Shown here: positions 17,301-61,560 of the stretch, piece after piece
Layout: the number at the start of each line of letters is the position of its first letter
Numbering within the stretch: the first letter of the stretch is position 1
Source of the DNA: a virus
Taxonomy: Duplodnaviria; Caudoviricetes
Reading direction: 5' to 3' (one strand)
Virus record (IMG/VR): IMGVR_UViG_3300021399_000003
Coordinates: 1-64,000 of that record
Length of the DNA: 64,000 nucleotides
Program-made: the position numbers and the translations under genes
The notes under the pieces: model-generated
The model's input: only the letters and a program-made list of their open reading frames with translations
The model's database searches: none
What the model was told of the DNA's origin: nothing

Positions 17301-20300
17301 TAATGTAAATGTTAGTGTTAGTGGTGGAACGCAAAGCGGTCCTCCTGGCGTAACAGGTAAAGGAGCTCCTAATACGCCAGCAAAAATTTTATCAGTTTCT
17401 GCTAGCTCCAAAACAAAAGGCAACGTCGCTCTAGCTAAAGGCCGTGAAACCCTTATGGGTGAATTAGGTCGCGAATTAGTAGTTTCTGGTGGTAAATACT
17501 ATACTGTAGGTGATAATGGCGCAGAATTTGTTGATTTACCAGATGATGCCATTGTATTTAATCATAAACAAACTAAACGCTTATTAGGCACAAAACGTGC
17601 TACTGGTGGAAGTCGAGGAAAGCCTGTAAAATCGGAAGCCGCTGCGCTTTCTTTTGCTGCTGGTAACGTTTCTGGACCTGCATTTGCTAGTGCTAGTGCT
17701 GCTTTAGCTCAATTAAAAGCTATTCGTGCCATGTGGCAAAGAATGCTTGACGCATCAGCCAAAGAACTAGGTTCACAAGCCGGCCGCGGAGGCGGCGGTG
17801 GCGGAGGCGGTGGTGGTGGCGGTGGAGACGAAGAAGGACCACCAACAACAACAACCGCCGATATTCAACGTTGGTATAACTGGTTACGTCAGATTGATCA
17901 TATTGAAATGCATATTGCTGAACAGGAAAAATTGCAGACTAAATATGAAAATGATAGAATTGCTAATGGCGAAAAAATATATGAGTCTCAAAAGCGTCAA
18001 TATGAATTATTAGGTGAAGAACTAAAGCGTAATGAAAAATTAGTTGAATTGCAAAAGAGTTGGTATGATAATAAGCGAGCAGAGTTAGCCGCATCTTCTT
18101 ATGGTAAGATTTTTACTTATAATGAAGATGGACTGCAGCAGTACGTTGGTGATGATAGACCGGGTTCTGGCGTTGGTCTTGATATTCTTGAAAATCTTAC
18201 TCGTCGTGATGTAAATGGTAAAGCTATTGGTAATGCCGCAACAGCAGAAAAACAATTAAAATATTTGCAATCTGTTGGCTTTAATTTAAATGATTTATTA
18301 TATAATGACGATGGCACAATGATTGCTAAGTCTTTTAATGTTAATGCAAAGAAAAATAAAAAGTTTACTAGTAAAACTGATAAAAAGGCTACAGACAATG
18401 ATTTAATGACTCAAATGATGGAGAATTTCTGGAATAATGTTGATTCTTGGCGTGATGAGCTTGATAGTTTGTATGATAGTTATCATGAACAATATGAAAA
18501 AATGATTGAAAATCAAAATAAACAAAATGAAATTCTTCAATCACTCATAGATAATGAATTAGATGTAGAGCAAGCATTAGTAGAAGCTATTGAATCTCGT
18601 GAACAAGCGGTTATAGATAAGTTACAGGAACAGAAAGATGCCCTCCAAAATTCTAATGAGAAATTTATAAAAGGCTTAACCGATAGTTTAAATAAAGAAA
18701 AAGAAACTCGTGATAAACAAAATAAAGATACTGAACTTACTAAGTTACAACGTCAATTAGCTATTTTACAACGTTCTGGTGGTTCTGCTTCTCAAATTAA
18801 ATCTTTGCAAGATCAAATTTCTACTAAGCAACAAGATGCATATTATGATGCTAGACAGCAAGAAATTGATGCTATTCAAGAAGCTTCTGATAAACAATTA
18901 GAAAAACTTGATACTCAAATTCAAATCCTTTCTGATACATTAGATTATCAAAAAGCAAATGGATTATTGTGGAATGAAGTCCGAGATATAATGGCTACAA
19001 ATACTCCAGAACAGGCTGCACAAAAAATATTACAATGGAATACTGAATATTTAGCTAAATCTGCATTAGATATAGAACAATCTTTAAAAGATATTCAAGA
19101 AAAATTTGGTATTTGGGCAAGTGAACGTGATGATGAAAATAATCCTTTAAAGAATGTAGAAGATTATACTCGTTCTCAAGCCATTCAAGAAATTGAAGGA
19201 CATGTGCAAGGTTTTTCTGGATTATCTGAGACTTCTCGTGGAAAACTAAGAAGCGGTGCCGAAAAAGCGGCAAAAAAAGCATATAAAGAAAAAATTGATG
19301 CTGGAGGTTCTGAATCAGAAGCTGAACAGGCTTATAGAGAAGCTTATCAAGGATATATAAATACGAATGTACAGCAATATAAAAATGTTGATACTCATGG
19401 GGCGGCTGCAGAACAAATTTGGGATAATATAGTAGCAAATGCTAAAAATGATCCAAAATCATTTGTAAATAAAGCTTATTATGGTGATTATGAAGATGAG
19501 TTAAAAGATAACTTTATTAAACAGCTTACTAATAATAAGAATATTACTTTTAATGAAGATGGCACTATTAGTGGAGACATTGCGACCGCTGCAGAAAATG
19601 CATTAAATACAGCTGGTAATGAATTAGAAAAAGAATATAATTTACAAGATAGCAAAACTGAATTATATAATCTTCCTCTGCCAAATGGTGCAACTGCTTA
19701 TACCTTTGGTGGGACTGGAAAAATTGGTAAAACCAAGTTTACTAAATTAAAAGAGAATAGTTATATTGAGGGTGGAAAAATAGTAGGATTTACTGGCGAG
19801 ACCACAGAGAAAACTATTAGTACAACCAATACTAGTAAAGGAAAAGCTAAAAAGCTATCATTCTTAGAAGCTAAATTGGAAGATGGAACGAAAGTTTATT
19901 TTAAATCTTCTTCTTTACCTGGAATATTAGATTCAATAAACGAGTCAAAAGAAGCAAGGGCAATTAATAAAAATATACAGAGCACAGAATCTAACATTAA
20001 GAAATTGGAATCACGTTCTTTTAAAATGCAAAAAATGACTCCATATTCATTTGATGATGGTAAAACTTCTTATACAATTAAAGAGGGGACTGAAGTTGGT
20101 ATTACTCATATTAATTTTTCTAAGAAAAAGAATGCAATTAATGGAGTAGATTCTGTTACTATTAGTTCAATTGATGGTAAAACTTTAAGTAAAGAAGTTA
20201 CTTTATCTGGTAATAAATTAAGTAAGACTAATAACGTTGCTTTATTAAAAGCGTTTGCTACGCCCAAAAAGACAGGAAAGGGTAAAAAGAAAAAAACGAT

Positions 20301-20697
20301 TTGGAATCCTATACCGGAGTTAAAAGCTTATTATAAAACTGGTGGCATGGCTGATTTCACTGGTCCTGCATGGTTAGATGGTACTTCAACGAAACCAGAA
20401 GCCGTTCTTAATGCCGCACAAACTGATTTCTTACGCAATGACTTATTGGGTAATTCTCGCACTTCATTAGTTTCAATTGTTTCTGCACTACAAACTGCAA
20501 TAGAAAACACAGCCTCTGGTAGTATTGGTAATACTAATACTACTGATGACAGCGTTATAATTGAGAATGTAGCTGTTACATTTGAAGCCGGTACAATTGC
20601 AAGTGATTATGACGCACGTCGCGCGGGCGCCTTATTCAAGGAAGAGCTTGTAAAAATCGCGCGAAAAGCTGGAAACAATAGCGTTTCAAGGAGGTAA
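5308..20697 (+). CDS. tape measure protein (5129 aa)
   Basis: TP901-type TMP core near aa 410-740 (IGSAMKSIASR, YIATQFAGNRQQSRFLALV); later TMP motifs LGVASPS, LMGELGRELVV and GGMADFTGPAWLDGT...PEAVLNAAQT; long coiled coils. Confidence 0.9.
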   Translation: MAEITVDVGVRLNVIQGTIDDLKKQLANIEIGSPKHNQLSKTIQQLEREWEKLQILTSKGFTSEQQFNQAGKSIEKMEGSIAKVQMIMNNIKFSDLKLNPAQQKEFEQVEQRIVEADTAFTQFQEKIKQGLLDKAGSKGLELLGTENLKKPFEELDRVIDNTVTNSNKKLTTLQENIAKIEGQITKSRDVHTKQAAGLTPQTYKDLGLEQYLTTYKDGLRYKPGVKNNNSDLLNTLADNLGLSQSKRLEWLDQLKNASVKDIQEAVKSISETDFLKGLQSKTADSLTSQKTGLETEYNQLIEKVQQLQQLQTQFKDTQGDNGQLSGAMEKYNAVLTECEQILTRMRGQAVSGFQKDMHKSTNALTNDLDNFNKQLGEASAQFLKLQNQKQTFNSMRMAVTNFMGFNQVLNLTKRAVRDAMNHIKQLDTTMNGISIVTDMTTSDLWKQVDVYSAMAQKYGTTIQGAYDVSKIYYQQGLETKDVMTLTEETLKLSKVSGLDYATTTDYMTTALRGFKMEMSDASTIVDVYSNLAANTAVSQEELAVAMSKTASSMESVGSTFEESSAMIATMVAVTRESATNIGSAMKSIASRYGELTKDPQKLLDSEGEAMSFNKVDAALKSVGISMQTTDHQFREFTDVIVELSEKWDTLDSTQQRYIATQFAGNRQQSRFLALVSNGDLLKENMETAANSEDVGTLQSLKAMDSIESKMNQVQVAAQQFYTTLGAEGVWKSALDGIRNYVDGLNNLPKLFDKIPIGAIAMVGSMLTLVKSALYKGIEGVAKIWQSVISPPDQVSTQQASGTQAGESWGQGYINALKSIAPAIKAAKDHIANSFKDEKSKEQNIQANQEQKPSEPSSTTTLTENNAAIESSSAQETLAMEQQVSQERIRNAAATREEVVANERQMQSELQQVIAEAKQNKLEQENASRTALNQAAQEQITDLQSLIDSGTASPITITGAEQGIADLRAEIESRPILATIELNAEEEAGAALQYLQSKFDQVKADISVNADTSEATAKIMAIDTLLGNLDDIVAHPEVADDAILDLGIKISDILRQIREVNENPITPVVESSDESQGGSEEQEESGDSSTSIPEIADEVIGKIQEETQAHIEGAAAAEQYANEEDQSAQSSVNAGEGAQVSAAGTQAETQEHVEAAGAAREHAAADEQVAQSATAAGEAAAQARQNASNLGSISMALNMIAGLLDKSSAGGRIFAGVLMTIAGVMKLVQAYNLAIANSSPWMAVGTAIVGIISGISTMIEDAEEKTERLTKAAEEANNKAKEKNADYKLLDRSISKLQELEKARYDSAEAAEEYQTAVDELASKYPQLITGLDAAGNATIEAANLDYELEKARRAAAEATLEAAKAEREKAENELENAKTDVNDKKNEILGEDGRVSSRYYSANLTDISTGKISFDKNVLGIQKGWFGRESSNLEALGLKSDQEYSTQEILDMLYRHNDTLKGFMSLSNNGLYEILDEGGFSREIQELTGADQSSVENFLNMIKSNPLSKENKFNVDDIQKISSEIAELNPASENFNQTVKELSTKISNAGMQSIFSDFMDYASELAIGLEKVENFKGVLKATEKTVLSAAVNNMGKEQQEFVESLGDASGLLTAYIYQLAEGKDNIEDYIKTQLEGDYQAFQEAYKTISASNVKTEQFQDMWKNRQNYTAEDFYSEFGINSEGDPLGILAYYEQNMMDVKTLKKRLEEKLDVNPFDSSIPMEQFSAQFDLSKLIKNQNIQLSPALASFVTDAINQAQEYFEEGFVDKGTEVLNATGQVISAINQEGVDTSAINALIKQYGISNISSISNIIENLPDGTPPEVQTAFQQLQNALLYNLPLAIQAYTEDLVSNVEDYESKIKKTSSGMTVNEAMQALELINSNIEGDTKPSHLTEFKSKNGKLIMDADLRQKYTDAVLHGLENDYQEIENKINEFIGTNGQETEQSKLLKELKYTTEPLSIDDADITNLLSDLHIIDKNADGEWHYVEDMVDSTTDIFALVSDLLNQQSTNAKELHEYAKKQIPAEAALEAGDIQGYFQSLLDTTESIDLNKIATGDFSEINELTYEQAKAGKDKINEVYSQFISDVFSKGLENINLQDYSGIYEQADAELKTAIEAAISTGNYQEIVRLTADLAGKTVQETNELVIQAIQASDSYKKQIEASDVIKDINFLTSNIAYASLETIQSLADSLNISEEDFNTLFDIDSYDAALGGFKLNMDTLAANGLNEIVNKTNIVADSVKAFLDSLAEGIGQGLEGKLDFAGRDNLISNLSKFGIELNETDFTRTADGLKLSQQRAIELYNTLKQIDSISAKTTFDALAKSLESTNENYTNISTIAKRIADLQNLINNPDVSDARRQEYEAELAVAEEIYRVRSSTDNKDFDFMSRSLPNGMQNPIDYWDATGKAYKSMNQAAKSGYMEIADFYNIVNEMNNMAAASGQVLSFMGQTLSGKAEDAAALIEQAMSTLTNIDGEGAKIALGKLGVDFSTGAADMSGNFDSGVKAMAKSQIKMLDAAINMLEAIVAMEELDVAGDGLDIGDIFSGTFDSNGLPEFTEKAEQWFDDVENLYGGIRIGEQSLKEAIQELGKEDPQKAVDMLKNIMSIDWTLGDMDVIGQIQNVVSAFFPGKIVTQGQSVFDILRVPKDLDPEKDAEKISKWAKNMKISTEDAMTLISQIKKGSLEAQKGTSLYESVEKLLGLTGKGNKEKRNLFEGFAGGTITDTTIEQWENIGFKYDEKGKIESGIYHGTDGGSITLSKDSPESWGKQIEQYETALAKARELGGSVVKAVEGSNNSEFTFNTSLGAKTIVTVVDNKGEVTYQFPNGFSCTASTPAEAAGKYVQYLRDNTEGYLGVKYQSMSDEEILIEQGYLLKQSTEVTFDTSDPKNNPAEKIKEASDKELQEALDGAKSTYNKKTQQYDWDITLGGENIQFSTNGKEIDADTLRQKALESLGIDNKLVESIATGIKDAFAQANLGEAIGTAFSEAFTGEGINTPLDLVMKLNDNGTYTIEGGRATGTGTDVNSALTNWWSNYKSVQGIGEETSVPLPAITLKAQTEGGTALCTINMSNDGMQCVLAGNGSGTGSGEAADLTSQIQDWVNTEFGKVSYETTYTTEEALKNITATANGTANFSVVITQPDGQGKSHVIVDGKDIGAGKAPGDILQTYFNTQLLLMKGKIENEYKEEAPAITATITIGDQTYSIVVNGDNTWTITGMGEDAPGIENPSDWINSEVQKKVDNDTSGILFELPTEKGRAITRTFSIGGLNFAVTITSLGNGNWLVDFPDRKGVPSTNPAGTIEDYVNEKLNPQVAAINALGSDEPQASVDTITEFVEINGMVFAITIKDNGDGTYIVNIPGLGEYATSKPTETIQLWKENKLKQIEMQTIMALKNKGEFVPGTTIPITVDGITYNLTIGEDSYTVNGQEYGSLAEALRAIATGTAPTGAEGDIELPEQHVVQDVEEEYNIDDGGGPEFPEIEDPPEKKVTQQITVDTERVKDTEDWFSGDRSWGLSRQEQRKMNRLNNPLGLDTTFRPGRSLQRQGDPNKQIEIPAELEKAYTNLASAYGDYVGGLTVGGLTTDGKPTFDNFDTSAATEFNAQLDQAVNSGLKLEEIFQSLGMPEQLIELLDKIKNEPTNLEVNETTQLDSEGQVLIDGTATGEMTVKINTETPENGGTGLDLDSNLGFIYENNNDLVNVQDNINKYLEKSANPELAATNLNNALQNALMEGGPEAAKGLIDGLGLGLQENGEATNAATTFGEDVIDSIDSALGVASPSTKTMEAGQYLVQGLAQGIQQDSAAISAAQTLAQRVITTIQNAFANSPLGKIFQLLGLSGTPGESLTLPGYTPIPNPGQQKDEGPSTIQVNGATIEAEGSDINAEGSKLDTGKQKPPEKKSDSGNAGTSTEKNSEGTVQTVQVQQVAAQPTAAPKPAAPETPTIDTSAIANAISAVQSAIDGLDASNAQTAATKFNTAMKNTMNSVPSSKTVNIKINTPEKINVTASVNVNVSVSGGTQSGPPGVTGKGAPNTPAKILSVSASSKTKGNVALAKGRETLMGELGRELVVSGGKYYTVGDNGAEFVDLPDDAIVFNHKQTKRLLGTKRATGGSRGKPVKSEAAALSFAAGNVSGPAFASASAALAQLKAIRAMWQRMLDASAKELGSQAGRGGGGGGGGGGGGGDEEGPPTTTTADIQRWYNWLRQIDHIEMHIAEQEKLQTKYENDRIANGEKIYESQKRQYELLGEELKRNEKLVELQKSWYDNKRAELAASSYGKIFTYNEDGLQQYVGDDRPGSGVGLDILENLTRRDVNGKAIGNAATAEKQLKYLQSVGFNLNDLLYNDDGTMIAKSFNVNAKKNKKFTSKTDKKATDNDLMTQMMENFWNNVDSWRDELDSLYDSYHEQYEKMIENQNKQNEILQSLIDNELDVEQALVEAIESREQAVIDKLQEQKDALQNSNEKFIKGLTDSLNKEKETRDKQNKDTELTKLQRQLAILQRSGGSASQIKSLQDQISTKQQDAYYDARQQEIDAIQEASDKQLEKLDTQIQILSDTLDYQKANGLLWNEVRDIMATNTPEQAAQKILQWNTEYLAKSALDIEQSLKDIQEKFGIWASERDDENNPLKNVEDYTRSQAIQEIEGHVQGFSGLSETSRGKLRSGAEKAAKKAYKEKIDAGGSESEAEQAYREAYQGYINTNVQQYKNVDTHGAAAEQIWDNIVANAKNDPKSFVNKAYYGDYEDELKDNFIKQLTNNKNITFNEDGTISGDIATAAENALNTAGNELEKEYNLQDSKTELYNLPLPNGATAYTFGGTGKIGKTKFTKLKENSYIEGGKIVGFTGETTEKTISTTNTSKGKAKKLSFLEAKLEDGTKVYFKSSSLPGILDSINESKEARAINKNIQSTESNIKKLESRSFKMQKMTPYSFDDGKTSYTIKEGTEVGITHINFSKKKNAINGVDSVTISSIDGKTLSKEVTLSGNKLSKTNNVALLKAFATPKKTGKGKKKKTIWNPIPELKAYYKTGGMADFTGPAWLDGTSTKPEAVLNAAQTDFLRNDLLGNSRTSLVSIVSALQTAIENTASGSIGNTNTTDDSVIIENVAVTFEAGTIASDYDARRAGALFKEELVKIARKAGNNSVSRR

Positions 20698-31629: not shown

Positions 31630-31919
31630 AGTAAATCCTCCACTACTGTTTTAATTAAATCATATGCTTTTTCATTATCTACTTGAATAATGGAGAATAC
31701 CTTATTTCCTCTTTGAAGAAGAGGAATATTTATTGTGAAATCTCTTTTAAAACTGAATCTAGTTTTTATACGTTCATAGCCATCTAAGACATTAATATCC
31801 TCTAATTCACTATTTAGTATTAATGAATCAGTGCGTGCGTAAAAAACATATAATTTTTCTTCTTCTTTATATAAAATAATTATATAGTTTGAATTACCTT
31901 CATACTTAATAATTTCCAT
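31626..31919 (-). CDS. hypothetical protein
   Basis: 97 aa, coupled to neighbours. Confidence 0.55.
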   Translation of the reverse strand: MEIIKYEGNSNYIIILYKEEEKLYVFYARTDSLILNSELEDINVLDGYERIKTRFSFKRDFTINIPLLQRGNKVFSIIQVDNEKAYDLIKTVVEDLL

Positions 31920-32932
31920 TATCCGCCACCACCTACATTTTTATTATATCCAAATTCTTGGCTTTTAAAGAAATCTATATAATATTTTTCTAATTCATTT
32001 AATTGTTCTTTTTCACAATAGATAATTATTTCAATTGTCCAATTCCAAAATCCAGTTTTCCATATTTCATGGTGTACCGCTTGGTCTGCGATTGTTTTTA
32101 TACCAATTGAACTTTTAAAATGGTCGGCAATTCGTTTCTTAACATTGGTACTTTTACCAATATAGCATTTGCCAGTATCAATATTTGTGATTTTATAAAT
32201 GCCGGGTTTATCTTCTATTCCAACCCGTTTAAAAGTCCCATCTATATAAGGTTTTACATATTCAGCCCATACAAGTTTATTTATAATATCAGGATGCTGA
32301 ACTTTTTGTGAAACAGTGGTAATTAGAAAGCTTATATCTTCTTTATATTCATCAGGAACTTGTATTGTATAAAATAAGCGTTCTTGTTGTTTCATCTCAT
32401 ATTGTCTTAAAGGAAGTAATAATCCTTCAAAACGCTCTTGTTGTGCGCGAGTTTCCGCAAGAATATCTTCTTGGCTTTCGCGCGCGGAATCAATCACTTT
32501 TTGAACTTCTTCTTTAAATTTATATTCTTTCTCTAGTTCTTCGCGCTCAAATTGAATGTATTTGGTTTTTAAGTTTTCTTCTTTTTCACGCCACAATCGT
32601 TCAAAATCTGTATCCATTTCTGATTGGCGCGTAAGTTTTTGATTTTCAAAATATAAGTCTAAATCTGTCGTTTTTTTATTTAGTTCTCGTTTATATTTGT
32701 TTTGAATTTCAATTAATTTATCATTATATTCACTAACTAAATTAGTTTGTGTCTTAATATCTTTTGTTAATTCATCTTTTTGAAAACGAAGTTTTTCAAC
32801 TCTTCCTTCTGCTTCAGAGATTTCTTTTTTATAAACTTCTAATTGTTTATTGTCAATTGAAACCTTCTGTCCTAATTTTATACTTAATACAATTATTATA
32901 ATCGTAAGTATTCCTATTATTCCATATAACAT
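31919..32932 (-). CDS. membrane-anchored coiled-coil protein with C-terminal GIY-YIG nuclease domain
   Basis: N-terminal hydrophobic helix (GIIGILTIIIIVLSI), ~160-aa coiled coil, then GIYKITN...CYIGKS...R...E...GYN. Confidence 0.8.
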   Translation of the reverse strand: MLYGIIGILTIIIIVLSIKLGQKVSIDNKQLEVYKKEISEAEGRVEKLRFQKDELTKDIKTQTNLVSEYNDKLIEIQNKYKRELNKKTTDLDLYFENQKLTRQSEMDTDFERLWREKEENLKTKYIQFEREELEKEYKFKEEVQKVIDSARESQEDILAETRAQQERFEGLLLPLRQYEMKQQERLFYTIQVPDEYKEDISFLITTVSQKVQHPDIINKLVWAEYVKPYIDGTFKRVGIEDKPGIYKITNIDTGKCYIGKSTNVKKRIADHFKSSIGIKTIADQAVHHEIWKTGFWNWTIEIIIYCEKEQLNELEKYYIDFFKSQEFGYNKNVGGGG

Positions 32933-33027: not shown

Positions 33028-33702
33028 ATTTTTATATTTCCATTTATATCCACCGCAAGTTTTCTTTATACCGCGGCAAACTCCACTTATATTTTGGGCA
33101 TGTAAACCAGTTTGTCGCGCCGCTTCGCTTGCACTAATATATTCGGTAATAAAATTATTATCTAAGTCATATTGAATAACTGCTTTGCCTATAGGGCCAC
33201 TTTTCTTTTTGATAAAAGGTTTTATTGTAATTGTATCATCATTTTTAGTTTTAAATTGAAAACCTTTCGCTGTTGGCCTGCGTTGTTGTATTACAGCATT
33301 TATAAGAGAAAGATTACACTTTAATTCACGAGCGGCCGCACTCATAGAGGGAAAATCTTTTATGTAATTTCCATCTAAATCATACATTTCTATTTGACGA
33401 TTACAAATAGTATGAAGTGGTCGTTTTCCTCCAGAAGTTTCATTATAGCCATTAAAATAACTATCGTAATAATTAATCCAATAAATTTCTTTTTCGTCTA
33501 ATAATTTTTCATCACATTCTTCAAGAATTGAAAAGGTAAAATTATCAACCCCATATTTACTTATTGCTCTATGAATAGTGCAATCATCATATCGTGCTTT
33601 ATGTTGTCGCCATCTTTGATATATATCTATCGCTTGACCAATATAATCTTTATTATTAAGATTATTATGAATGCGATATATTCCACAAATAATATCTCGC
33701 AT
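33016..33702 (-). CDS. free-standing GIY-YIG homing endonuclease with two NUMOD1-like domains
   Basis: GIYRIHN...DYIGQA...R...E...GYN; two QYDLDGN..F.S..EAAR repeats. Confidence 0.88.
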   Translation of the reverse strand: MRDIICGIYRIHNNLNNKDYIGQAIDIYQRWRQHKARYDDCTIHRAISKYGVDNFTFSILEECDEKLLDEKEIYWINYYDSYFNGYNETSGGKRPLHTICNRQIEMYDLDGNYIKDFPSMSAAARELKCNLSLINAVIQQRRPTAKGFQFKTKNDDTITIKPFIKKKSGPIGKAVIQYDLDNNFITEYISASEAARQTGLHAQNISGVCRGIKKTCGGYKWKYKNEQA

Positions 33703-33796
33703 ATTTTTAACTCCTTCAACTCCAAAATAAAAGATAAAGGAAGCGGGAGTTGAACGCTTATCAGAAAGGTAGCTAATCTTTCCTATCCTTTATCTT
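33703..33796 (-). ncRNA. putative structured cis-regulatory leader RNA, copy 1
   Basis: P1 AAGATAAAGG/CCTTTATCTT; P2 GAAAG/CTTTC with loop ATTAGCTAC; P3 AAGCG/CGCTT with loop TTCAACTCC, complementary to GGAGTTGAA abutting the SD; homologous copy at 49949-50034. Confidence 0.7.
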
Positions 33797-33825
33797 AATA
33801 TATCATAAATTTTAGAAAAAGTCAA
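33797..33825 (-). promoter_or_regulatory. sigma-A type promoter
   Basis: TTGACT-17-TATATT with extended TG. Confidence 0.75.
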
Positions 33826-46731: not shown

Positions 46732-47736
46732 TTATTCCATAATTTCTTTCATTTCATCTATGAATAACTCAACAAGGTCGCTTTGCGAGGGAACTGCTTG
46801 ACTAAGCTTAAACGTTTCTGTGCCAAACACACGCTTGATAATATCTTTAGCAATATTAAAGTGTTGCTCTTTTGCTTCGTCTGTTTCAGCTTCATTAATA
46901 TACGCTTGCCAAATTGCCTTGGCTTCTTCCATAATTTCATTAAATGGACGAGCCTTAATTTGCGCGATAACTGTATGGTCAGTTACTTCTGCTCCATCCT
47001 TTTCAACAGCTTGGTCAATTGCATCACCAATCGCATCAACCAATTCTTGATAACCAAACTTAATCTTTGGCGCCAAGTATTGATAACGACTGCCCGCAAA
47101 TACTGTCGGTGTAGAGCGTGTGTATAGATAGCGTTCAGAAGTGCCGTCATTATTCATCTGAACTTGTAAATATCCAATAATATCTACAATACTGTTTACA
47201 ATTTGATAGCACTGATTCGGCAAGTCAGGCGCTACCGCGGTGATTTCATTACCCTCTTCATCGCGCATTTCGGTTGGCTTTTCCTTACTATGCGCGATAA
47301 ATAAAATACCAAAACCAAGAAGTGTAATTTCACGCCAGCATTCAGAGAACTCATTTCGTAGCATACCCCAGCCTTGGCCCCAAGGAATTTCTCGGATGGA
47401 ATCAACACTTTCACGCTGACAAATATACTTCTCACAAAGTTGCCATGCGATAGAAGCGGTATCTACTACAATACTATCATACATTTCACGTGCCTGTGGC
47501 TTACGTAGTTGTGTAAGAACCTTGCGGAAATCACTCCAACGAAGAATAGGAACACTACGAATACCAGCTAAGGCATTAGTGCCTTGCTCAAAATTTAGAA
47601 ATAGTGAGCGAGGTAATTGCGAGCCAAATGTGGATTTACCCGTTTTAGGCTGCCCATAAATAAGTAAAAACTTTCCTTTTAGGTCGCGGGAAATCTTACT
47701 TGGTTCAAGAGAGAAAATATCAATATCGTTTGCCAT
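46732..47736 (-). CDS. AAA_24/Sak4-like ATPase (recombinase)
   Basis: YGQPKTGKST Walker A, IVVDT Walker B, FIAHSKE, AGSR; adjacent to SSB. Confidence 0.82.
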   Translation of the reverse strand: MANDIDIFSLEPSKISRDLKGKFLLIYGQPKTGKSTFGSQLPRSLFLNFEQGTNALAGIRSVPILRWSDFRKVLTQLRKPQAREMYDSIVVDTASIAWQLCEKYICQRESVDSIREIPWGQGWGMLRNEFSECWREITLLGFGILFIAHSKEKPTEMRDEEGNEITAVAPDLPNQCYQIVNSIVDIIGYLQVQMNNDGTSERYLYTRSTPTVFAGSRYQYLAPKIKFGYQELVDAIGDAIDQAVEKDGAEVTDHTVIAQIKARPFNEIMEEAKAIWQAYINEAETDEAKEQHFNIAKDIIKRVFGTETFKLSQAVPSQSDLVELFIDEMKEIME

Positions 47737-47751
47737 ATGCTATCCCTCCTT

Positions 47752-47784
47752 AGAAAATGAGAATAAGGTTTTCACCTTATTCCC
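47752..47784 (-). terminator. terminator/attenuator after ssb
   Basis: GAATAAGGT-GAAA-ACCTTATTC followed by TCATTTT. Confidence 0.65.
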
Positions 47785-48682
47785 AATCATAGGACTTAGC
47801 AGCCTTGGCTGGCTCCTTAGCCGCCTTTGGAGCATTACCCTTCTTGGCATCAATCTGTAGCTGTTCAATCATTGCCTTACGGACATTGAACGCCTTCTTG
47901 ATGTCAGTCTTATCATAGGCAAACTCTTCCTCATAAGGTTCATCACTGCCCTTGGTAATGACTAGCTGACGTACCGTGCGAGTTGTAGTCTCGGGTACAT
48001 CCTCACCCCAAGAGCTTTCAGTAGCCTTTGGCTTATCTTCAATAGAAGTAACACGAATACGACCGCGAACCTCTACAGTGTCATCAATATTCCAGTTGCG
48101 CTCAATGTAATCAATAGTATCGGGATTCTCAACTACAAACTCAATCACATCTAGCTTACCCTGATACTGAACAATTGCGCCCTTGATGATTAGCTTGCCA
48201 GTCTCTTCACCCTCACGGTCAACCTCTGGCTTCATATCCATGATATAAATATCAATAATGAAAGAAGCTACATCTGCGGTCGCACCAGAGTTAATGAAGC
48301 TAGTATTAATCTGCCAGCCATGAATTAGCTGACCGCTATTACGAGAAACAAAGTTATTCTCGCGTAGATTCGCGCCAGAAATACGAACAGTATCGGCATT
48401 ATCAATGCCAACCATCTGTGCGGTCTTCATTTCGGCTAGATTCTCAATCTGAGTATAACCCGGATTTAGCTTATTTTGCTGAGTATATTGTGCAGCGAAC
48501 ATACTGACTGGGATTTCACTAGTCTCTTCGCGCCCGCCATAAGTCTGAGTTACACGAATTGTAAGATTCGCACGCTTATACTTGCGGCCATCACTTAATG
48601 TGCCATCGTTAATTACTGCGTCTAGTAGCTTGCCAACAACATTAATTTTGTTATTTGCTTGTGTCATAATATCCTTGCTCAT
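47777..48682 (-). CDS. ssb: single-stranded DNA-binding protein (tandem OB folds)
   Basis: NKINVVGKL...; second OB fold (TVEVRGRI); acidic/aromatic C-terminus YDWE; high-expression codon bias; next to Sak4. Confidence 0.7.
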   Translation of the reverse strand: MSKDIMTQANNKINVVGKLLDAVINDGTLSDGRKYKRANLTIRVTQTYGGREETSEIPVSMFAAQYTQQNKLNPGYTQIENLAEMKTAQMVGIDNADTVRISGANLRENNFVSRNSGQLIHGWQINTSFINSGATADVASFIIDIYIMDMKPEVDREGEETGKLIIKGAIVQYQGKLDVIEFVVENPDTIDYIERNWNIDDTVEVRGRIRVTSIEDKPKATESSWGEDVPETTTRTVRQLVITKGSDEPYEEEFAYDKTDIKKAFNVRKAMIEQLQIDAKKGNAPKAAKEPAKAAKSYDWE

Positions 48683-48714
48683 ATTACATTTCTCCTTATC
48701 TTTTCTTTACATTT

Positions 48715-48743
48715 ATTATATCATAATTTTTATATGTTGTCAA
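48715..48743 (-). promoter_or_regulatory. sigma-A type promoter for ssb
   Basis: TTGACA-17-TATAAT with extended TG. Confidence 0.9.
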
Positions 48744-48744
48744 G

Positions 48745-48780
48745 ATAAAACTAAGGCGATTCCACGAGGGAATCGCCCTC
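48745..48780 (-). terminator. intrinsic terminator
   Basis: GGCGATTCC-CTCGT-GGAATCGCC followed by TTAGTTTTAT. Confidence 0.7.
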
Positions 48781-48790
48781 ATTTATTCTA

Positions 48791-49150
48791 TTAGGCGTTC
48801 TCCTTGGCAGCCTTAGCAGCAGCGCGCTCAGCGGCCTTACGCTCCTTCTCAGCAGCTTTAGCCGCCTGCTTGGCCTCTTCCTCAGCTACTGGGTCATAGG
48901 CTAGACCAGCCTCAGTTAGTGTCTCATGACGAACAGTCTTAACCTTTGCCTTGCGAGTCTCGGTAGCATCTTCAACAACCTTCTCTTCTAGACGCTCAGT
49001 AACATAGCCCTTCTTAACTAGGCCATTAATGGAACCGGTAACGGCGGGAATGGAAATACCTAGGGTCTCTGCAATCTCATTCTTGGTAAACTCCTGGCCA
49101 AAGTGCTTCTTAAGAAAATTTAATACTAACTCTGAGTTGGGTGTGATCAT
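48791..49150 (-). CDS. winged-helix DNA-binding protein with Ala/Lys/Glu-rich tail
   Basis: TKNEIAETLGISIPAVTGSINGLVKKGYV wHTH; C-terminal AAKAAEKERKAAERAAAKAAK. Confidence 0.75.
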   Translation of the reverse strand: MITPNSELVLNFLKKHFGQEFTKNEIAETLGISIPAVTGSINGLVKKGYVTERLEEKVVEDATETRKAKVKTVRHETLTEAGLAYDPVAEEEAKQAAKAAEKERKAAERAAAKAAKENA

Positions 49151-49233
49151 AAAACATCAATCTCCTTTATTAAATAATTATTTTTATATTTGTAAGCGGC
49201 AGGAATTTTACTCCTTTTCCTCTTTACAATCTT

Positions 49234-49262
49234 ATTATATCAGATTTTTATATAAAAGTCAA
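49234..49262 (-). promoter_or_regulatory. sigma-A type promoter
   Basis: TTGACT-17-TATAAT with extended TG; the -35 contains the TGA stop of the upstream GIY-YIG gene. Confidence 0.85.
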
Positions 49263-49948
49263 ATATTAGTTAAGTATTTTGCTACTGTTTGACGAGAAAT
49301 TTTTAATTCTTTTCCTATTTCATTTAAAGTATATCCCTGTTGTCGAAGTTCACGGGCTCTTGTTTTATTATTTTCTCGTTGATTTGTTGTTAATAAATCA
49401 GGTCGTAGTCGCTGTAAAACTCTATTTATTGTAGTTGTTCCACAATTTAAAATACTTGCTATTAATACAGTGCCGTATCCAGCCTCTTTCATTTCACAAA
49501 TTAAAGCATCTTTAGCGTGAGCAGTATTTAAATTATGATTTTTTAAAATATCAACTACTGTTTCTCTACTACATTTTAATTCTTGACAAATTTCAAAAAT
49601 CTTTTTATTTTGTTGCCGTAATATTAAAACTTGTTTTTCAATGCCCTCATTTAATCGTTTATTGCCACAACCACCTAATGTAGAATTATAACCATTATAA
49701 TAACTATTATAATAATTAATCCAATACATTTCTCTTTCATCTAATAAAGAATCTGAAACTTCTTCTATTAAAAAAACATGAAACTTTTCTTGGCCTATTA
49801 AATGAATAGCATTATAAAATTTATTTTTAATATTATTATTAGAATTATATAAATGTTGTTTAAAACGAGTTTCAATAGATAACGTAGTTTGACCAATATA
49901 AACCTTGTCATTCACATCATTTGTGATTTTATAAATATATCCCATCAT
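49259..49948 (-). CDS. free-standing GIY-YIG endonuclease with three C-terminal HTH modules
   Basis: GYIYKITN...VYIGQT...R...ERE...GYNSTLGG; HTH repeats such as GYTLNEIGKELKISRQTVAKYL. Confidence 0.88.
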   Translation of the reverse strand: MMGYIYKITNDVNDKVYIGQTTLSIETRFKQHLYNSNNNIKNKFYNAIHLIGQEKFHVFLIEEVSDSLLDEREMYWINYYNSYYNGYNSTLGGCGNKRLNEGIEKQVLILRQQNKKIFEICQELKCSRETVVDILKNHNLNTAHAKDALICEMKEAGYGTVLIASILNCGTTTINRVLQRLRPDLLTTNQRENNKTRARELRQQGYTLNEIGKELKISRQTVAKYLTNI

Positions 49949-50034
49949 AATCCCTCCCAGGATATTGATTATATAAGAGGCTTGTGTGGGAGCACATTAT
50001 CTCAAAGAGTAGCTAATTCTTTGCTTCCCTCTTA
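49949..50034 (-). ncRNA. putative structured cis-regulatory leader RNA, copy 2
   Basis: P1 TAAGAGG/CCTCTTA; P2 CAAAGA/TCTTTG with loop ATTAGCTAC; P3 TGTG/CACA with loop CTCCCA, complementary to TGGGAG of the SD. Confidence 0.7.
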
Positions 50035-50042
50035 CTATAATA

Positions 50043-50071
50043 ATTATATTATAAATTTAGAAAAAAGTCAA
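50043..50071 (-). promoter_or_regulatory. sigma-A type promoter
   Basis: TTGACT-17-TATAAT. Confidence 0.85.
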
Positions 50072-50072
50072 A

Positions 50073-50474
50073 TTATTCAGAATCTTCTTCATTTAATTCT
50101 ATATCTTCCTTAATTTCAAATAAATTTTCTGCGAGTTCTGCAGTTTCAGAAGCGTCAGCATTATTAATTTGATCTAGCTTAGGAATGATATCAATCTTAT
50201 ATCCTTGTAGGGCTTTTTGCTCACTCTTAATACGGGCATCTAGTTGATTGGTGACAATAATCGCACCAACAAGTAAACGAGCATAATCAGCCTTATCTAA
50301 TGCCTCGTCAGTTCCTAGCTTATCATGTAAATTAAGGAAATCATTTCGCATTGTTTCTGCGGTTTGATAGCCTTTTTCTTCGTTATTCTTCTTATGCTCT
50401 TCCATTACTTGTTCTGCTAGGTTAGCAGTAGTCTGAGCAATCAAAGTAAATAATTCTACATATCTCTTATCCAT
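50073..50474 (-). CDS. hypothetical helical protein
   Basis: 133 aa, SD GGAG, downstream of gyrA. Confidence 0.65.
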   Translation of the reverse strand: MDKRYVELFTLIAQTTANLAEQVMEEHKKNNEEKGYQTAETMRNDFLNLHDKLGTDEALDKADYARLLVGAIIVTNQLDARIKSEQKALQGYKIDIIPKLDQINNADASETAELAENLFEIKEDIELNEEDSE

Positions 50475-50486
50475 ATTATTTCTCCA

Positions 50487-52874
50487 TTACATAATTTCAA
50501 TTCCACTTTCTACTCCGCGCGCATCAATAATGCGAATTCCACTAGTTACGCGGTTTTGAATGGGAATAGAATCAACATTTAATAAAACCGCTTTATTATT
50601 GGTAGTAATAAATATCTTTTCTTGTGTTTCGGGCACAGCAAATACTGTTGCTAAAGTTTCTATCTTTAAATCCATTACTTGTGGGCCTTTAATCGCGCGA
50701 CTAGTCATATTGAAATCTTCTATCCTAGTAATTTTACCTTTACCAGTAGTAGTAATAGTTAAAAGACCACGATAGTTTATGTCTTTCTTTACTAGGGTCG
50801 CCGCACAAATAGTTTCAGTTGTTCCTAACTTAATGGCCTTAACGCCCTTAGTCATTCTTCCAGTAGTAGAAACCTCGCCAATTTCATAGAAGTTATAATT
50901 ACCAGCACTACCCGTAATAAAAATCTTGTCTTCATCGTTCATAGAAAGATATACTCCGACAAGCCTATCGTCAGTATCTAGCTTCATTACAGCAGTGCCC
51001 TTCTTAGCCCGCACATTATATTCACGAGTAACTGTCTTTTTAATATAACCTTTCTTACTTATGGTTACTAAATTATGATATGCATTGAAGGAAGTTGTAT
51101 CTATTAGTAGCAGGACTTTTTCATTATCTTGTAGAACAATTAGTTCATAAACAGAATAGTCCTTTCCATAATCTAAATCAGCCAAAGAAAAATTATACAT
51201 ACGACCAGCATTGGTGAATGCGGCAACAACTCCAAGGTTGGTTGTATACAAAGTATTGATTAGGTTCGCACCCTTCGGAGGCTTAATATTTACACCCTTT
51301 CGCCCACGTTTTCCACCCTGTAAATCTTCTTTCTTAACAAGACGCAACATATTGTTATCAAATAACATTACGCCGACTTCTTCTTCTTGAATTTGCTGTT
51401 CCTCGTTATCTTCATTCTCTACAATATTTAAAATCTTAGTACGACGAGCGTCGCCATATTTATCAGCCACTATCTGTAGTATTTTAATTAGTTCATTGTT
51501 CAAAGCGGTAGTATCAGATAATAAGTGGCGATACTCCTCTATTTTTCTTTTAAGTTCTTCTAGTTCATCATTTAATTTGATAGCATCTATTTTTGTTAAT
51601 GAAGAAAGCTTCATAGCGAGAATTGCCTTTGTTTGTTCTTCATTAAACTTAAAACGAGCAATAAGTTTTTCAGATGCTTCTGCTGGATTTTGAGAAGAGC
51701 GAATAATCGCGACAACTTCATCAATAGAGGCCGCCGCAAGAATAAGTCCTTCTACTACATTTTCGCGTGCGAGTGCTTTATCTAAATCAAATTGAATAAT
51801 GTTGCGCTTACATTCACGAATGTGGGTTATGTAGGCATCACATGCTTCGCGCCAACCAAATACTTTTGGAAAGCGTCCATTATCCAGTAGAATCATATTA
51901 ATAGCATACCAATTCTCAAGTCTTGTATCCTTGTAAAGCTTGGCTATCATTCGCTTTGGATTTGCGCCTTTTGAAAGATAAATACGAATATCGGCTATTT
52001 TCTTGGTATGGTCTACAACTCGTTCTATTCCATAACTTTCATTTTCATTTGTAAGGGCGGCTAGCTGGTCAATAATAGTGTTTGTAAAGACACCATAAGG
52101 TAGTTCAGTAGCCTGAATCATATGCTGGTCGGGGAAATATTCAAGTTTTGCCTTTAAACGAATAGATTCGCCCTTACCGTTTTTTAAGCTTTCGCGCACC
52201 GCTTTAGCATTTGTAATTGTTCCACCTGTTGCGAAATCAGGAGCACAATAAATTTCATTAAAACTTACATTGGGATTCTGAATAATTTTGATTAGTGCCT
52301 CGTTGACTTCGCGCAGATTGAATTGAGGAACTGACGTGGCCATTGCAACCGCAATACCAGAACATCCATTTACAATATTCCAAAATCCAATAGAAGGCAA
52401 TACAGAAGGAATCATTTCTGTATCGTCATAATTAGAATACCATTGTTCTCCGATAGCGTTTTTCTTTAAACCAGCAAAGAAATAATCTGCCATTTCACCA
52501 GCACGCATTTCAACATAACGTGCGGCCGCATGGCTATCTGGGGAAGATGGATTGCCATAGTTGCCTTGAACTTCTTCAATCGGATAACGATATGACCACG
52601 GACGAGCGGTTCGTATGAAAGTATCATACATTGCTACATCACCATGGACATATGACTGAGCCATTGCCGCGGCAACAGACTTTTGTGCTTTCTGAAATTT
52701 ATCTTTATGTGTTATCTTATTAGAAAATTGAGCGTACAATCCTTGACGTAAGCCAATCTTTAGAAAATCCCTAGCATCCGGTATTGCACGTTCCTGTGCC
52801 ACCGAAGCGGCGTAAGTCAAGAAAGCTCCTTCAATTTGTTTTTGAAAATCAGTTTCGTAAATCAAATTGTTCAC
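50487..52874 (-). CDS. gyrA: type IIA topoisomerase subunit A (GyrA/ParC)
   Basis: RAIPDARD, HGD, QGNYG, AAARY active-site Tyr, PDFATGG, C-terminal beta-pinwheel blades; start may be TTG at 52865. Confidence 0.93.
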   Translation of the reverse strand: MNNLIYETDFQKQIEGAFLTYAASVAQERAIPDARDFLKIGLRQGLYAQFSNKITHKDKFQKAQKSVAAAMAQSYVHGDVAMYDTFIRTARPWSYRYPIEEVQGNYGNPSSPDSHAAARYVEMRAGEMADYFFAGLKKNAIGEQWYSNYDDTEMIPSVLPSIGFWNIVNGCSGIAVAMATSVPQFNLREVNEALIKIIQNPNVSFNEIYCAPDFATGGTITNAKAVRESLKNGKGESIRLKAKLEYFPDQHMIQATELPYGVFTNTIIDQLAALTNENESYGIERVVDHTKKIADIRIYLSKGANPKRMIAKLYKDTRLENWYAINMILLDNGRFPKVFGWREACDAYITHIRECKRNIIQFDLDKALARENVVEGLILAAASIDEVVAIIRSSQNPAEASEKLIARFKFNEEQTKAILAMKLSSLTKIDAIKLNDELEELKRKIEEYRHLLSDTTALNNELIKILQIVADKYGDARRTKILNIVENEDNEEQQIQEEEVGVMLFDNNMLRLVKKEDLQGGKRGRKGVNIKPPKGANLINTLYTTNLGVVAAFTNAGRMYNFSLADLDYGKDYSVYELIVLQDNEKVLLLIDTTSFNAYHNLVTISKKGYIKKTVTREYNVRAKKGTAVMKLDTDDRLVGVYLSMNDEDKIFITGSAGNYNFYEIGEVSTTGRMTKGVKAIKLGTTETICAATLVKKDINYRGLLTITTTGKGKITRIEDFNMTSRAIKGPQVMDLKIETLATVFAVPETQEKIFITTNNKAVLLNVDSIPIQNRVTSGIRIIDARGVESGIEIM

Positions 52875-60587: not shown

Positions 60588-61283
60588 TTAATAAGGTCTT
60601 ATGCGTCCTGATGTTTTCATTTTATTTTTATTCATTTTAACAATTTCTTCTATTGATAAAGTGTCATTAATTCTACGCCAAAGAAAATGTTTATGCGAAT
60701 AAGCATAGTGGGCACAACATCTATTTACTTCGTTTCTGTCAAAACCTGCTTCTTTGACTTCTTTTGAAGTATTAAAACGCCGGATAAAATTACCCTCCAA
60801 ATCATATTGTTCTATTGGAATACTATTTTTATTTTCTCGTATTTTAGCGGAGCGTTGTTTCTTTTGTTCGGTGTCAATACCTAAATTAGATAAAGTATAA
60901 CTGGCTGTCATATAAGTACATCCCAATTCATTACTAATATCAGAGCAAGAATAGCCTCTATTCCATAAATTAAGAATTTCTTTTTCAGAATATTTTTTAT
61001 CGCCCTCTCCGCCAATGGTAGAATTATATCCCTTTTTATAGGAATCATAGAAATTAATCCAATAAATTTCTCTTTCATTTAATTGTTCTTCAGGTATATT
61101 ATCTTCTATTATAGAAGGATAAAAATGTTCAATTCCATATTTACGAATTGCGTAATAAAATTTATTATTTGTATAATAGCTATCTTTTTGATGGTCTTTC
61201 CAACGAATTTCTAAAGTTCTTGTAGTTTTTCCTACATAAACCTTATTATTAATATCATTGATTATCTTATAAATTAAACCCAT
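60588..61283 (-). CDS. free-standing GIY-YIG endonuclease (HTH + NUMOD1-like)
   Basis: GLIYKIIN...VYVGKT...R...ERE...GYNSTIGG; IEQYDLEGNFIRRF. Confidence 0.88.
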   Translation of the reverse strand: MGLIYKIINDINNKVYVGKTTRTLEIRWKDHQKDSYYTNNKFYYAIRKYGIEHFYPSIIEDNIPEEQLNEREIYWINFYDSYKKGYNSTIGGEGDKKYSEKEILNLWNRGYSCSDISNELGCTYMTASYTLSNLGIDTEQKKQRSAKIRENKNSIPIEQYDLEGNFIRRFNTSKEVKEAGFDRNEVNRCCAHYAYSHKHFLWRRINDTLSIEEIVKMNKNKMKTSGRIRPY

Positions 61284-61287
61284 AAAA

Positions 61288-61485
61288 TCACATCCATATA
61301 TCTTCTAATTGTTTAATAAAAGATTGAATATGGTGTTCTATTGATTCTTCCATTCGTTTGGAAATATTGTAATCTGTTTTCATCCATTTAGAAATACTAG
61401 TTGCGTGGCATTCGCAAATTTTCCCTAATTGATTGAATGAAAAACCGTTGTCAATTAAATATTGAATTTTTTCCTTTAAAGTCAT
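61288..61485 (-). CDS. small HTH protein
   Basis: GFSFNQLGKICECHATSISKWM; ATG at 61485 after GGAGG. Confidence 0.7.
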   Translation of the reverse strand: MTLKEKIQYLIDNGFSFNQLGKICECHATSISKWMKTDYNISKRMEESIEHHIQSFIKQLEDIWM

Positions 61486-61560
61486 ATTCAATCCCTCCAT
61501 AGGGATAGTGATGGAGAAAGAGAAGAAATATGTTAATTTCTTCTCATTTCTCTGATTTTT

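Follow-up and report, generated by a model that had tools for sequence, protein, structure and literature searches.

Homing-endonuclease genes of the T-even phages are translationally repressed by structures that sequester their ribosome-binding sites (Edgell, Gibb and Belfort 2010, PMC2988022, section 12). I-TevI, I-TevII, I-TevIII and segB are examples, as is mobE of phage Aeh1 (PMC2988022). In T4 I-TevI, segB and others, late promoters located inside the inhibitory structure give rise to transcripts with a free ribosome-binding site (PMC2988022). Homing endonucleases need to be expressed enough to spread without harming their own phage, and only the gene-specific hairpins of T-even phages were previously known to manage this. 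These hairpins are simple and share no common sequence or fold. In preQ1-II, SAM-II and similar pseudoknot-type riboswitches and anti-Shine-Dalgarno leaders, an upstream loop pairs with the Shine-Dalgarno region and blocks initiation. Kissing loops that mediate dimerisation are known from the HIV-1 DIS and from a loop in the 3' UTR of oskar (review PMC7357161).

The DNA analyzed here, referred to as the window, is the first 64 kb (64,000 nucleotides) of a 169,459-bp IMG/VR phage record with direct terminal repeats. Covariance-model searches located four copies of a structured leader in the phage genome, at 50.0, 33.8, 73.1 and 74.4 kb. The leader under study, near 50.0 kb, is called copy 2 and the leader near 33.8 kb copy 1. 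The features of the copy 2 locus are as follows.

50071-50043, minus strand: sigma-70-type cassette promoter (-35 box 50071-50066, 17-nt spacer, -10 box 50048-50043)
50034-49974, minus strand: three-way-junction core P1-P2-P3, from the minimum-energy fold and the covariance model
50034-50028 with 49980-49974, minus strand: helix P1
50027-50024, minus strand: junction strand J1
50023-50018 with 50008-50003, minus strand: helix P2, closing a 9-nt loop (50017-50009)
50017-50009, minus strand: P2 loop, composed of 2 nt, the palindrome UAGCUA (50015-50010) and 1 nt; candidate dimerisation loop
50002-49997, minus strand: junction strand J2
49996-49993 with 49986-49983, minus strand: helix P3, with the loop CUCCCA (49992-49987)
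49982-49981, minus strand: junction strand J3
49973-49964, minus strand: A/U-rich single-stranded linker between P1 and P4, starting with TATAAT (49973-49968)
49963-49950, minus strand: hairpin P4 (stem 49963-49960 with 49953-49950, 6-nt loop UGGGAG at 49959-49954)
49958-49952, minus strand: Shine-Dalgarno sequence, with GGAGG at 49957-49953
49259..49948, minus strand: free-standing GIY-YIG homing endonuclease gene, identified with Pfam
49262-49234, minus strand: resident promoter (with TG; 11 of 12 consensus matches), serving the next gene (48791-49150)

As in the T-even leaders, the ORF of a phage homing endonuclease is closely preceded by a structured RNA that pairs with the Shine-Dalgarno sequence. 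The latter is base-paired within a conserved structure, and the presumed purpose is the same, namely to limit or delay synthesis of the selfish nuclease. The sequestered ribosome-binding site of a homing-endonuclease gene is already known from T-even phages. The conserved four-helix fold, the covarying kiss, the palindromic loop and the use of one fold across unrelated nucleases are not. Whereas each T-even hairpin belongs to its own gene, a single modular four-helix architecture serves nuclease genes of at least three superfamilies and moves with the cassette. The best explanation, to which a probability of roughly 0.75 is assigned, is that copy 2 is the leader of a mobile GIY-YIG cassette mRNA in which a P3-P4 kiss and the P4 stem lock the ribosome-binding site and throttle translation of the nuclease.

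Leaders were collected by pattern scans of viral and metagenome contigs, followed by searches with two covariance models (R1 and R2) derived from the matches. A loose loop pattern gave mostly chance hits among the viral-contig matches listed; tighter patterns worked. The resulting collection, from related uncultured phages, comprises 48 non-identical leaders with 39 distinct cores and 26 different P3 loops. Four complete related phage records (123-184 kb) carry two to four copies each, and a partial related record of 63 kb carries one. The pattern scan of bacterial and archaeal genomes returned chance matches only among the 80 listed loci examined, none of which matched the covariance model. 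The specificity of the covariance model was checked on 576 kb of bacterial DNA containing chance loose-pattern matches, which served as a negative control and gave 0 matches. Rfam 15 gave no match over the whole window at gathering thresholds, and when both window leaders were searched up to E 10, the best hits were unrelated snoRNA, miRNA and sRNA models with E values of at least 0.1. A blastn search of the locus against GenBank phages produced only short nrdD-like matches, to Lak and Vibrio phages, indicating that the locus has no annotated phage relative in GenBank. No description of the leader motif was found in a full-text literature search.

The cassette promoter, with 11 of 12 consensus matches, follows the stop codon of a 133-aa ORF on the minus strand. 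The -10 box is separated from P1 by 8 nt, placing the predicted transcript start 1-2 nt before P1. Other copies of the leader start within a few nucleotides of the 3' end of a tRNA gene. The sequence thus places the leader at the 5' end of its transcript. The cassette promoter is one of at least 10 near-identical promoter repeats of the phage (families D2-D9). The repeat, TTGAC-N17-TATAAT with a common A/T-rich spacer, heads minus-strand genes of the window; examples, all on the minus strand, are found at 33004-32962, 46714-46672, 48753-48711, 50081-50039, 55173-55122 and 63995-63953.

The minus-strand coordinates and fold proposed in the initial annotation of this DNA proved correct to the base. 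The minimum-energy structure calculated by RNAfold is exactly the P1-P2-P3 three-way junction, and the fold was confirmed by covariation in relatives. The thermodynamic z-score of the whole 97-nt leader, -0.79, is unremarkable. The core scored 79.7 bits with R1 and 76 bits with R2 (E about 1e-19). Among 17 model-aligned relatives, 98.1% of the cells in P1-P3 were paired and double changes occurred in 14 of 16 pairs, counts that overstate independence, as the sequences share ancestry and were aligned by fitting to the model. None of 500 shuffles scored as high, and partners that had been slid out of position were 34-53% paired. Despite the overstated independence, the predicted helices P1-P3 are not in doubt. 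The junction nucleotides are also kept across the 39 distinct cores, J1 as G/A-N-A-G/A, J2 mostly as AGAUAA and J3 as AG. A hammerhead-type core was compared with the junction strands by eye and did not fit.

The P3 loop CUCCCA (49992-49987) is a perfect 6-nt complement of UGGGAG at 49959-49954, which overlaps the Shine-Dalgarno sequence. It mimics the anti-Shine-Dalgarno sequence, and the predicted duplex energy is -8.6 to -10.0 kcal/mol. In copy 2 alone, a 6-nt complement within 39 nt was found in 26 of 2000 composition-preserving shuffles (1.3%), and in a single sequence such a complement is only suggestive. The weight of evidence for the kiss comes from the relatives, where loop and target change together. 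Since the MAFFT alignments (A1, A6) placed the two subtypes of the leader and the P4 loops out of register, the kiss was counted by script on structurally parsed leaders. A perfect complement of at least 5 nt, located 10-17 nt after P1, accompanied 25 of the 26 P3 loops. The complement in the leader's own ribosome-binding region reached at least 6 nt for 22 of 26, and the whole P3 loop was paired with its target in 19 of 26 variants. When the ribosome-binding regions were reassigned among leaders, a mean of about 1 in 26 reached 6 nt, with a maximum of 9 in 20,000 permutations. In the closest relatives of copy 2, the pair CUCCCA:UGGGAG is replaced by CUCCAC:GUGGAG, with further coordinated changes to CUCCG:CGGAG and CUCCUU:AAGGAG. 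The complementarity between the P3 loop and the Shine-Dalgarno region, claimed earlier for copy 2, was thus borne out and is kept by compensatory change.

In all 26 loop variants, the target is enclosed by a stem of 4-12 bp with varied, covarying sequence. It follows that the target is itself the loop of a fourth hairpin, P4, and that the lock is a loop-loop kiss. The P4 stem of copy 2 has 4 bp only, and the GGAGG of the Shine-Dalgarno sequence straddles the P4 loop and its 3' strand. At the level of comparative sequence analysis, the four helices and the P3-P4 kiss are demonstrated. The arrangement resembles preQ1-II and SAM-II in that an upstream loop pairs with the Shine-Dalgarno region, but the partner is a hairpin loop rather than the single strand of the riboswitches, and there is neither a sign of a ligand nor an Rfam match.

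The two leaders of the window belong to different subtypes. J1/J2/J3 read GAAG/AGAUAA/AG in copy 2 versus AUAG/UGAUAA/UU in copy 1, which represents subtype A, and every helix differs, in agreement with the earlier view that the two did not arise by recent duplication. The P4 loop of the subtype A leaders (window 33702-33797, minus strand; L003, L046, L171 and L184) is large and contains the complement of the P3 loop twice, the second time at the Shine-Dalgarno position. Both complements change with the P3 loop in five of five types; they measure 9 nt and 6 nt in copy 1 and are GGGAAUG and GGGAAU in L184. The double complement is possibly a decoy site or a two-state switch.

It had been suggested that different P3 loops keep each lock specific to its own gene. 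This held for copy 2 within its genome, the loop of which forms 6 bp with its own site versus 4 bp with the three other sites, but not for the 74.4-kb copy, the loop of which matches the ribosome-binding site of copy 1 and its own equally well. Of the non-cognate loop:site pairs in the whole family, 4% reached 6 nt. Orthogonality is not needed, since the interaction takes place within one molecule. The variation of the loops is better read as probable compensated drift of an intramolecular pairing than as selection for orthogonal locks.

According to the proposed mechanism, the transcript would start 1-2 nt before P1 and fold into the three-way junction. The 6-nt P3 loop would mimic the 3' end of 16S rRNA and pair with the 6-nt P4 loop, which would hold the first half of the Shine-Dalgarno sequence. 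The other half, together with part of the spacer before the start codon, would be contained in the 3' strand of P4. The ribosome-binding site would then be held twice, by the loop-loop kiss and by the P4 stem, and the nuclease, which is potentially harmful, should consequently be translated late or only at a low level. Repression by the fold is the outcome predicted by this model. The Shine-Dalgarno sequences are long and strong, and 30S subunits may compete well with the lock.

Two routes of relief can be envisaged, both of which involve the linker. The hexamer TATAAT was found in 11 of 26 distinct linkers versus 0.89 expected from shuffles, and it is not accompanied by a -35 element. It may act as a -10 element within the leader or provide for ribosome standby. 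Translation might leak through ribosome standby on the A/U-rich linker, or the TATAAT box might initiate transcripts within the leader, in the manner of T4 I-TevI. An internal -10 box is a further possible likeness to the T-even leaders, although for release by an embedded late promoter there is proof in T4 and only a hint here.

A simple hairpin would be enough for repression, and consequently the conserved junction nucleotides and the palindromic P2 loop are not explained by repression alone. The P2 loop had been treated as constant in the initial annotation; it is constant only among sequences that were fetched with the loop as bait. Model-based and loop-agnostic searches together yielded 11 types of P2 loop, nine of which contain a perfect 6-nt palindrome of the form U-NNNN-A. 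Six palindrome sequences occur: UAGCUA, UAAUUA, UGGCCA, UUGCAA, UGAUCA and UCAUGA. In eight of the nine types, with 9-nt loops, the first base of the palindrome is at loop position 3, and in the ninth, a 10-nt loop, it is at position 4; the palindrome always ends one base short of the stem. A tenth type is palindromic with one G.U pair, and one other type keeps only GGCC. An additional, non-palindromic P2 loop belongs to a decayed copy.

The HIV-1 DIS loop has the same 9-nt arrangement of 2+6+1. The P2 loop also resembles DIS and oskar in carrying a 6-nt palindrome in an apical hairpin loop, one that stays self-complementary as its sequence changes. Unlike in DIS, the flanks of the palindrome are not the conserved purines, and many of the palindromes are composed of A and U only and are weak. 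Furthermore, the P2 loop of the putative dimer is situated in an mRNA leader rather than serving genome packaging. The free-strand duplex energies of the palindromes range from -0.4 to -9.1 kcal/mol; the weakest duplex, at -0.4 kcal/mol, is that of UAAUUA, the second commonest, which has almost no predicted duplex stability. A second copy of the palindrome was absent from the 1 kb downstream of copy 2. When an intramolecular partner was sought in each mRNA, 18 occurrences were found in 41.8 kb, about the number expected by chance, and none was in the nuclease gene. Because the palindrome cannot pair within a 9-nt loop and has no downstream copy, pairing between two molecules is the simplest reading. 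That the palindromic P2 loops make two leaders kiss, and so dimerise, is put forward tentatively, at slightly under even odds. It is a good deal more doubtful that the leader is a portable RNA "safety catch" of selfish nuclease cassettes that works as a homodimer through its P2 loops, with concentration-dependent pairing setting the P3-P4 lock. If it were so, nuclease synthesis would be tied to the abundance of its own mRNA, which would make the leader a natural example, in a bacterial or phage mRNA, of regulation through RNA self-association.

The nuclease encoded downstream of copy 2 consists of an N-terminal GIY-YIG catalytic domain (Pfam, residues 1-87, E 1.3e-11) and a C-terminal DNA-binding module. 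The HTH modules described previously correspond to Pfam matches at residues 195-226 (HTH_7, E 4.7e-14) and, more weakly, at 105-135 and 162-187. Likewise, the GIY-YIG gene behind copy 1 has two NUMOD1 domains, as annotated. The start codon needs correction. The relatives begin at MGYIYK, which makes the second ATG (49945), 7 nt after GGAGG, the likely start of a protein of 228 aa.

The initial annotation had also concluded that the RNA travels with the GIY-YIG class. This was not the case. Other leaders precede HNH genes of several PHROG families, a NUMOD4-HNH gene, a PD-(D/E)XK_5-NUMOD1 gene, and GIY-YIG genes with NUMOD3. The genes downstream of the leaders are all homing-endonuclease-like, and two of the four GIY-YIG genes of the window (31919-32932 and 60588-61283) have no leader. 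The leader was also absent from 16 GIY-YIG relatives with 35-54% identity, fetched by protein from other phages, and the idea of an RNA that follows the GIY-YIG class was rejected on this ground. By its distribution, the leader is a module of homing-endonuclease cassettes within a related phage group and not as a companion of GIY-YIG. An intact leader without a nuclease gene was sought among the relatives and none was found; in one relative, the leader precedes an apparently broken nuclease gene.

Several minor observations concern the surrounding nuclease genes. In L228 (1480-1560, minus strand; G007), a 126-aa ORF with no obvious nuclease identity is joined at its start to a leader remnant comprising the P1 5' strand, P2 and J2, the start codon falling in what would be J2/P3; this looks like the scar of a cassette loss. 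The leaderless gene at window 31919-32932 (minus strand) has its own promoter and encodes 337 aa, with GIY-YIG at the C-terminal end (residues 243-330) and no family match in the preceding 240 residues; it may have arisen by fusion or by rearrangement of a nuclease gene. At window 60588-61560 (minus strand), the fourth GIY-YIG gene (231 aa, weak NUMOD1), also leaderless, overlaps the end of a 70-aa ORF, the Shine-Dalgarno sequence of which is contained in a small hairpin, with a 4-nt loop on a 6-bp stem, just after a long hairpin. In the distant phages represented by L206, L207, L208, L216 and L220, elements resembling a group I intron core were recognized by eye upstream of position 1500, before GIY-YIG genes. 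These nucleases are probably intron-encoded and without a leader of the copy 2 kind.

The mobility of the cassette was evaluated by aligning window 47700-52000 to relatives. The three relatives compared differ in what they carry at this one intergenic site, which thereby shows presence/absence polymorphism. In G001, about 740 nt (roughly 50024-49285) are missing and the flanking genes are joined through a single promoter, with which the resident promoter at 49262-49234 aligns; this promoter marks where the cassette ends on the right. At this site G002 carries another GIY-YIG gene, of 273 aa, preceded by a leader of the same kind, and G003 has the cassette of copy 2 at 91% identity. An empty site lacking promoter, RNA and ORF together had been predicted, and G001 supplies it. 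Judged from these alignments, the mobile unit is promoter, leader and ORF, inserted upstream of the resident promoter. The copy 2 cassette is located just downstream of the topoisomerase II genes and copy 1 just downstream of the large subunit of ribonucleotide reductase, surroundings that are typical for homing endonucleases. Additionally, L222 and L223 (both 1501-1620) share an identical 61-nt leader, linker and Shine-Dalgarno sequence ahead of different HNH ORFs, and diverge from a few nucleotides before the start codon, a pattern that would fit recombination at the leader.

The possibility was considered that the fold is operated by something other than its own pairing. The lock might be stabilised or opened by a protein bound to the junction or to the P2 hairpin, either an RNA-binding protein of the phage or host or the nuclease itself. 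In favour of this, both the closing pair of P2 and the junction are conserved, and T4 offers a precedent for protein control in the RegA-type translational repressors. A second T4 precedent is the autorepression of I-TevI at a DNA operator (PMC2988022). However, the downstream nucleases have at least three unrelated folds and different DNA-binding modules, which makes autoregulation by the product unlikely, and the P2 loop varies freely as long as it is palindromic, a behaviour that suits RNA-RNA pairing better than recognition by a protein. A translational operator of this kind is considered improbable. It is a little less probable that the element is a riboswitch, with the three-way junction as the aptamer for a small molecule or ion and the P3-P4 kiss as the expression platform. 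A pairing that occludes the Shine-Dalgarno sequence is a usual platform of riboswitches and the conservation of unpaired junction nucleotides across 39 distinct cores would suit an aptamer, but conservation is confined to about 12 junction nucleotides, several of which are swapped together in subtype A. Moreover, Rfam gave no riboswitch match up to E 10, the downstream selfish nucleases have no metabolic logic, and ligand binding does not explain a self-complementary loop.

Several copies begin within a few nucleotides of a tRNA 3' end, and small ribozymes typically contain three-way junctions with tertiary loop contacts. Both observations could point to a self-cleaving element, or to an RNase site that frees the nuclease mRNA from tRNA-containing transcripts. 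Copy 2, however, has its own promoter and needs no release, and none of the ribozyme families of Rfam 15 matches, so that a processing element is very unlikely. Least credible of all is an explanation at the DNA level, for instance a site of recombination or homing or a palindrome bound by a protein, or else a chance complementarity of GGAG-related words. The kiss partners do resemble Shine-Dalgarno and anti-Shine-Dalgarno sequences, so that 4 bp come free, and the leader marks the boundary at which cassettes differ, L222 and L223 having the same leader before different ORFs. Against this, covariation includes the bases on either side of the GGAG core, and the observed count was approached in no permutation; G.U pairs occur in the helices and once in a palindrome; and the 2+6+1 asymmetry of the loop breaks the dyad symmetry of DNA. 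Repression through the P3-P4 kiss and the P4 stem remains the preferred reading. The leader provides a natural system for studying translational locks based on loop-loop kisses, for testing natural mRNA self-dimerisation, and for annotating and exactly delimiting homing-endonuclease cassettes in the genomes of uncultured phages, and the many matching natural loop-pair variants are a ready set of near-orthogonal RNA locks for synthetic biology.

Two further features were noted in these genomes. In several related phages, including G002 and G004, TAG is read as sense (L004, L007, L010, L036, L195, L234 and L239); there are 3-7 in-frame TAG codons per gene, and a sense TAG fits glutamine in the YIGQ motif of the GIY-YIG genes. 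The phage of the window uses the standard code. Finally, a single ORF of 5129 aa extends over window 5308-20697 (plus strand) within a block of plus-strand ORFs.
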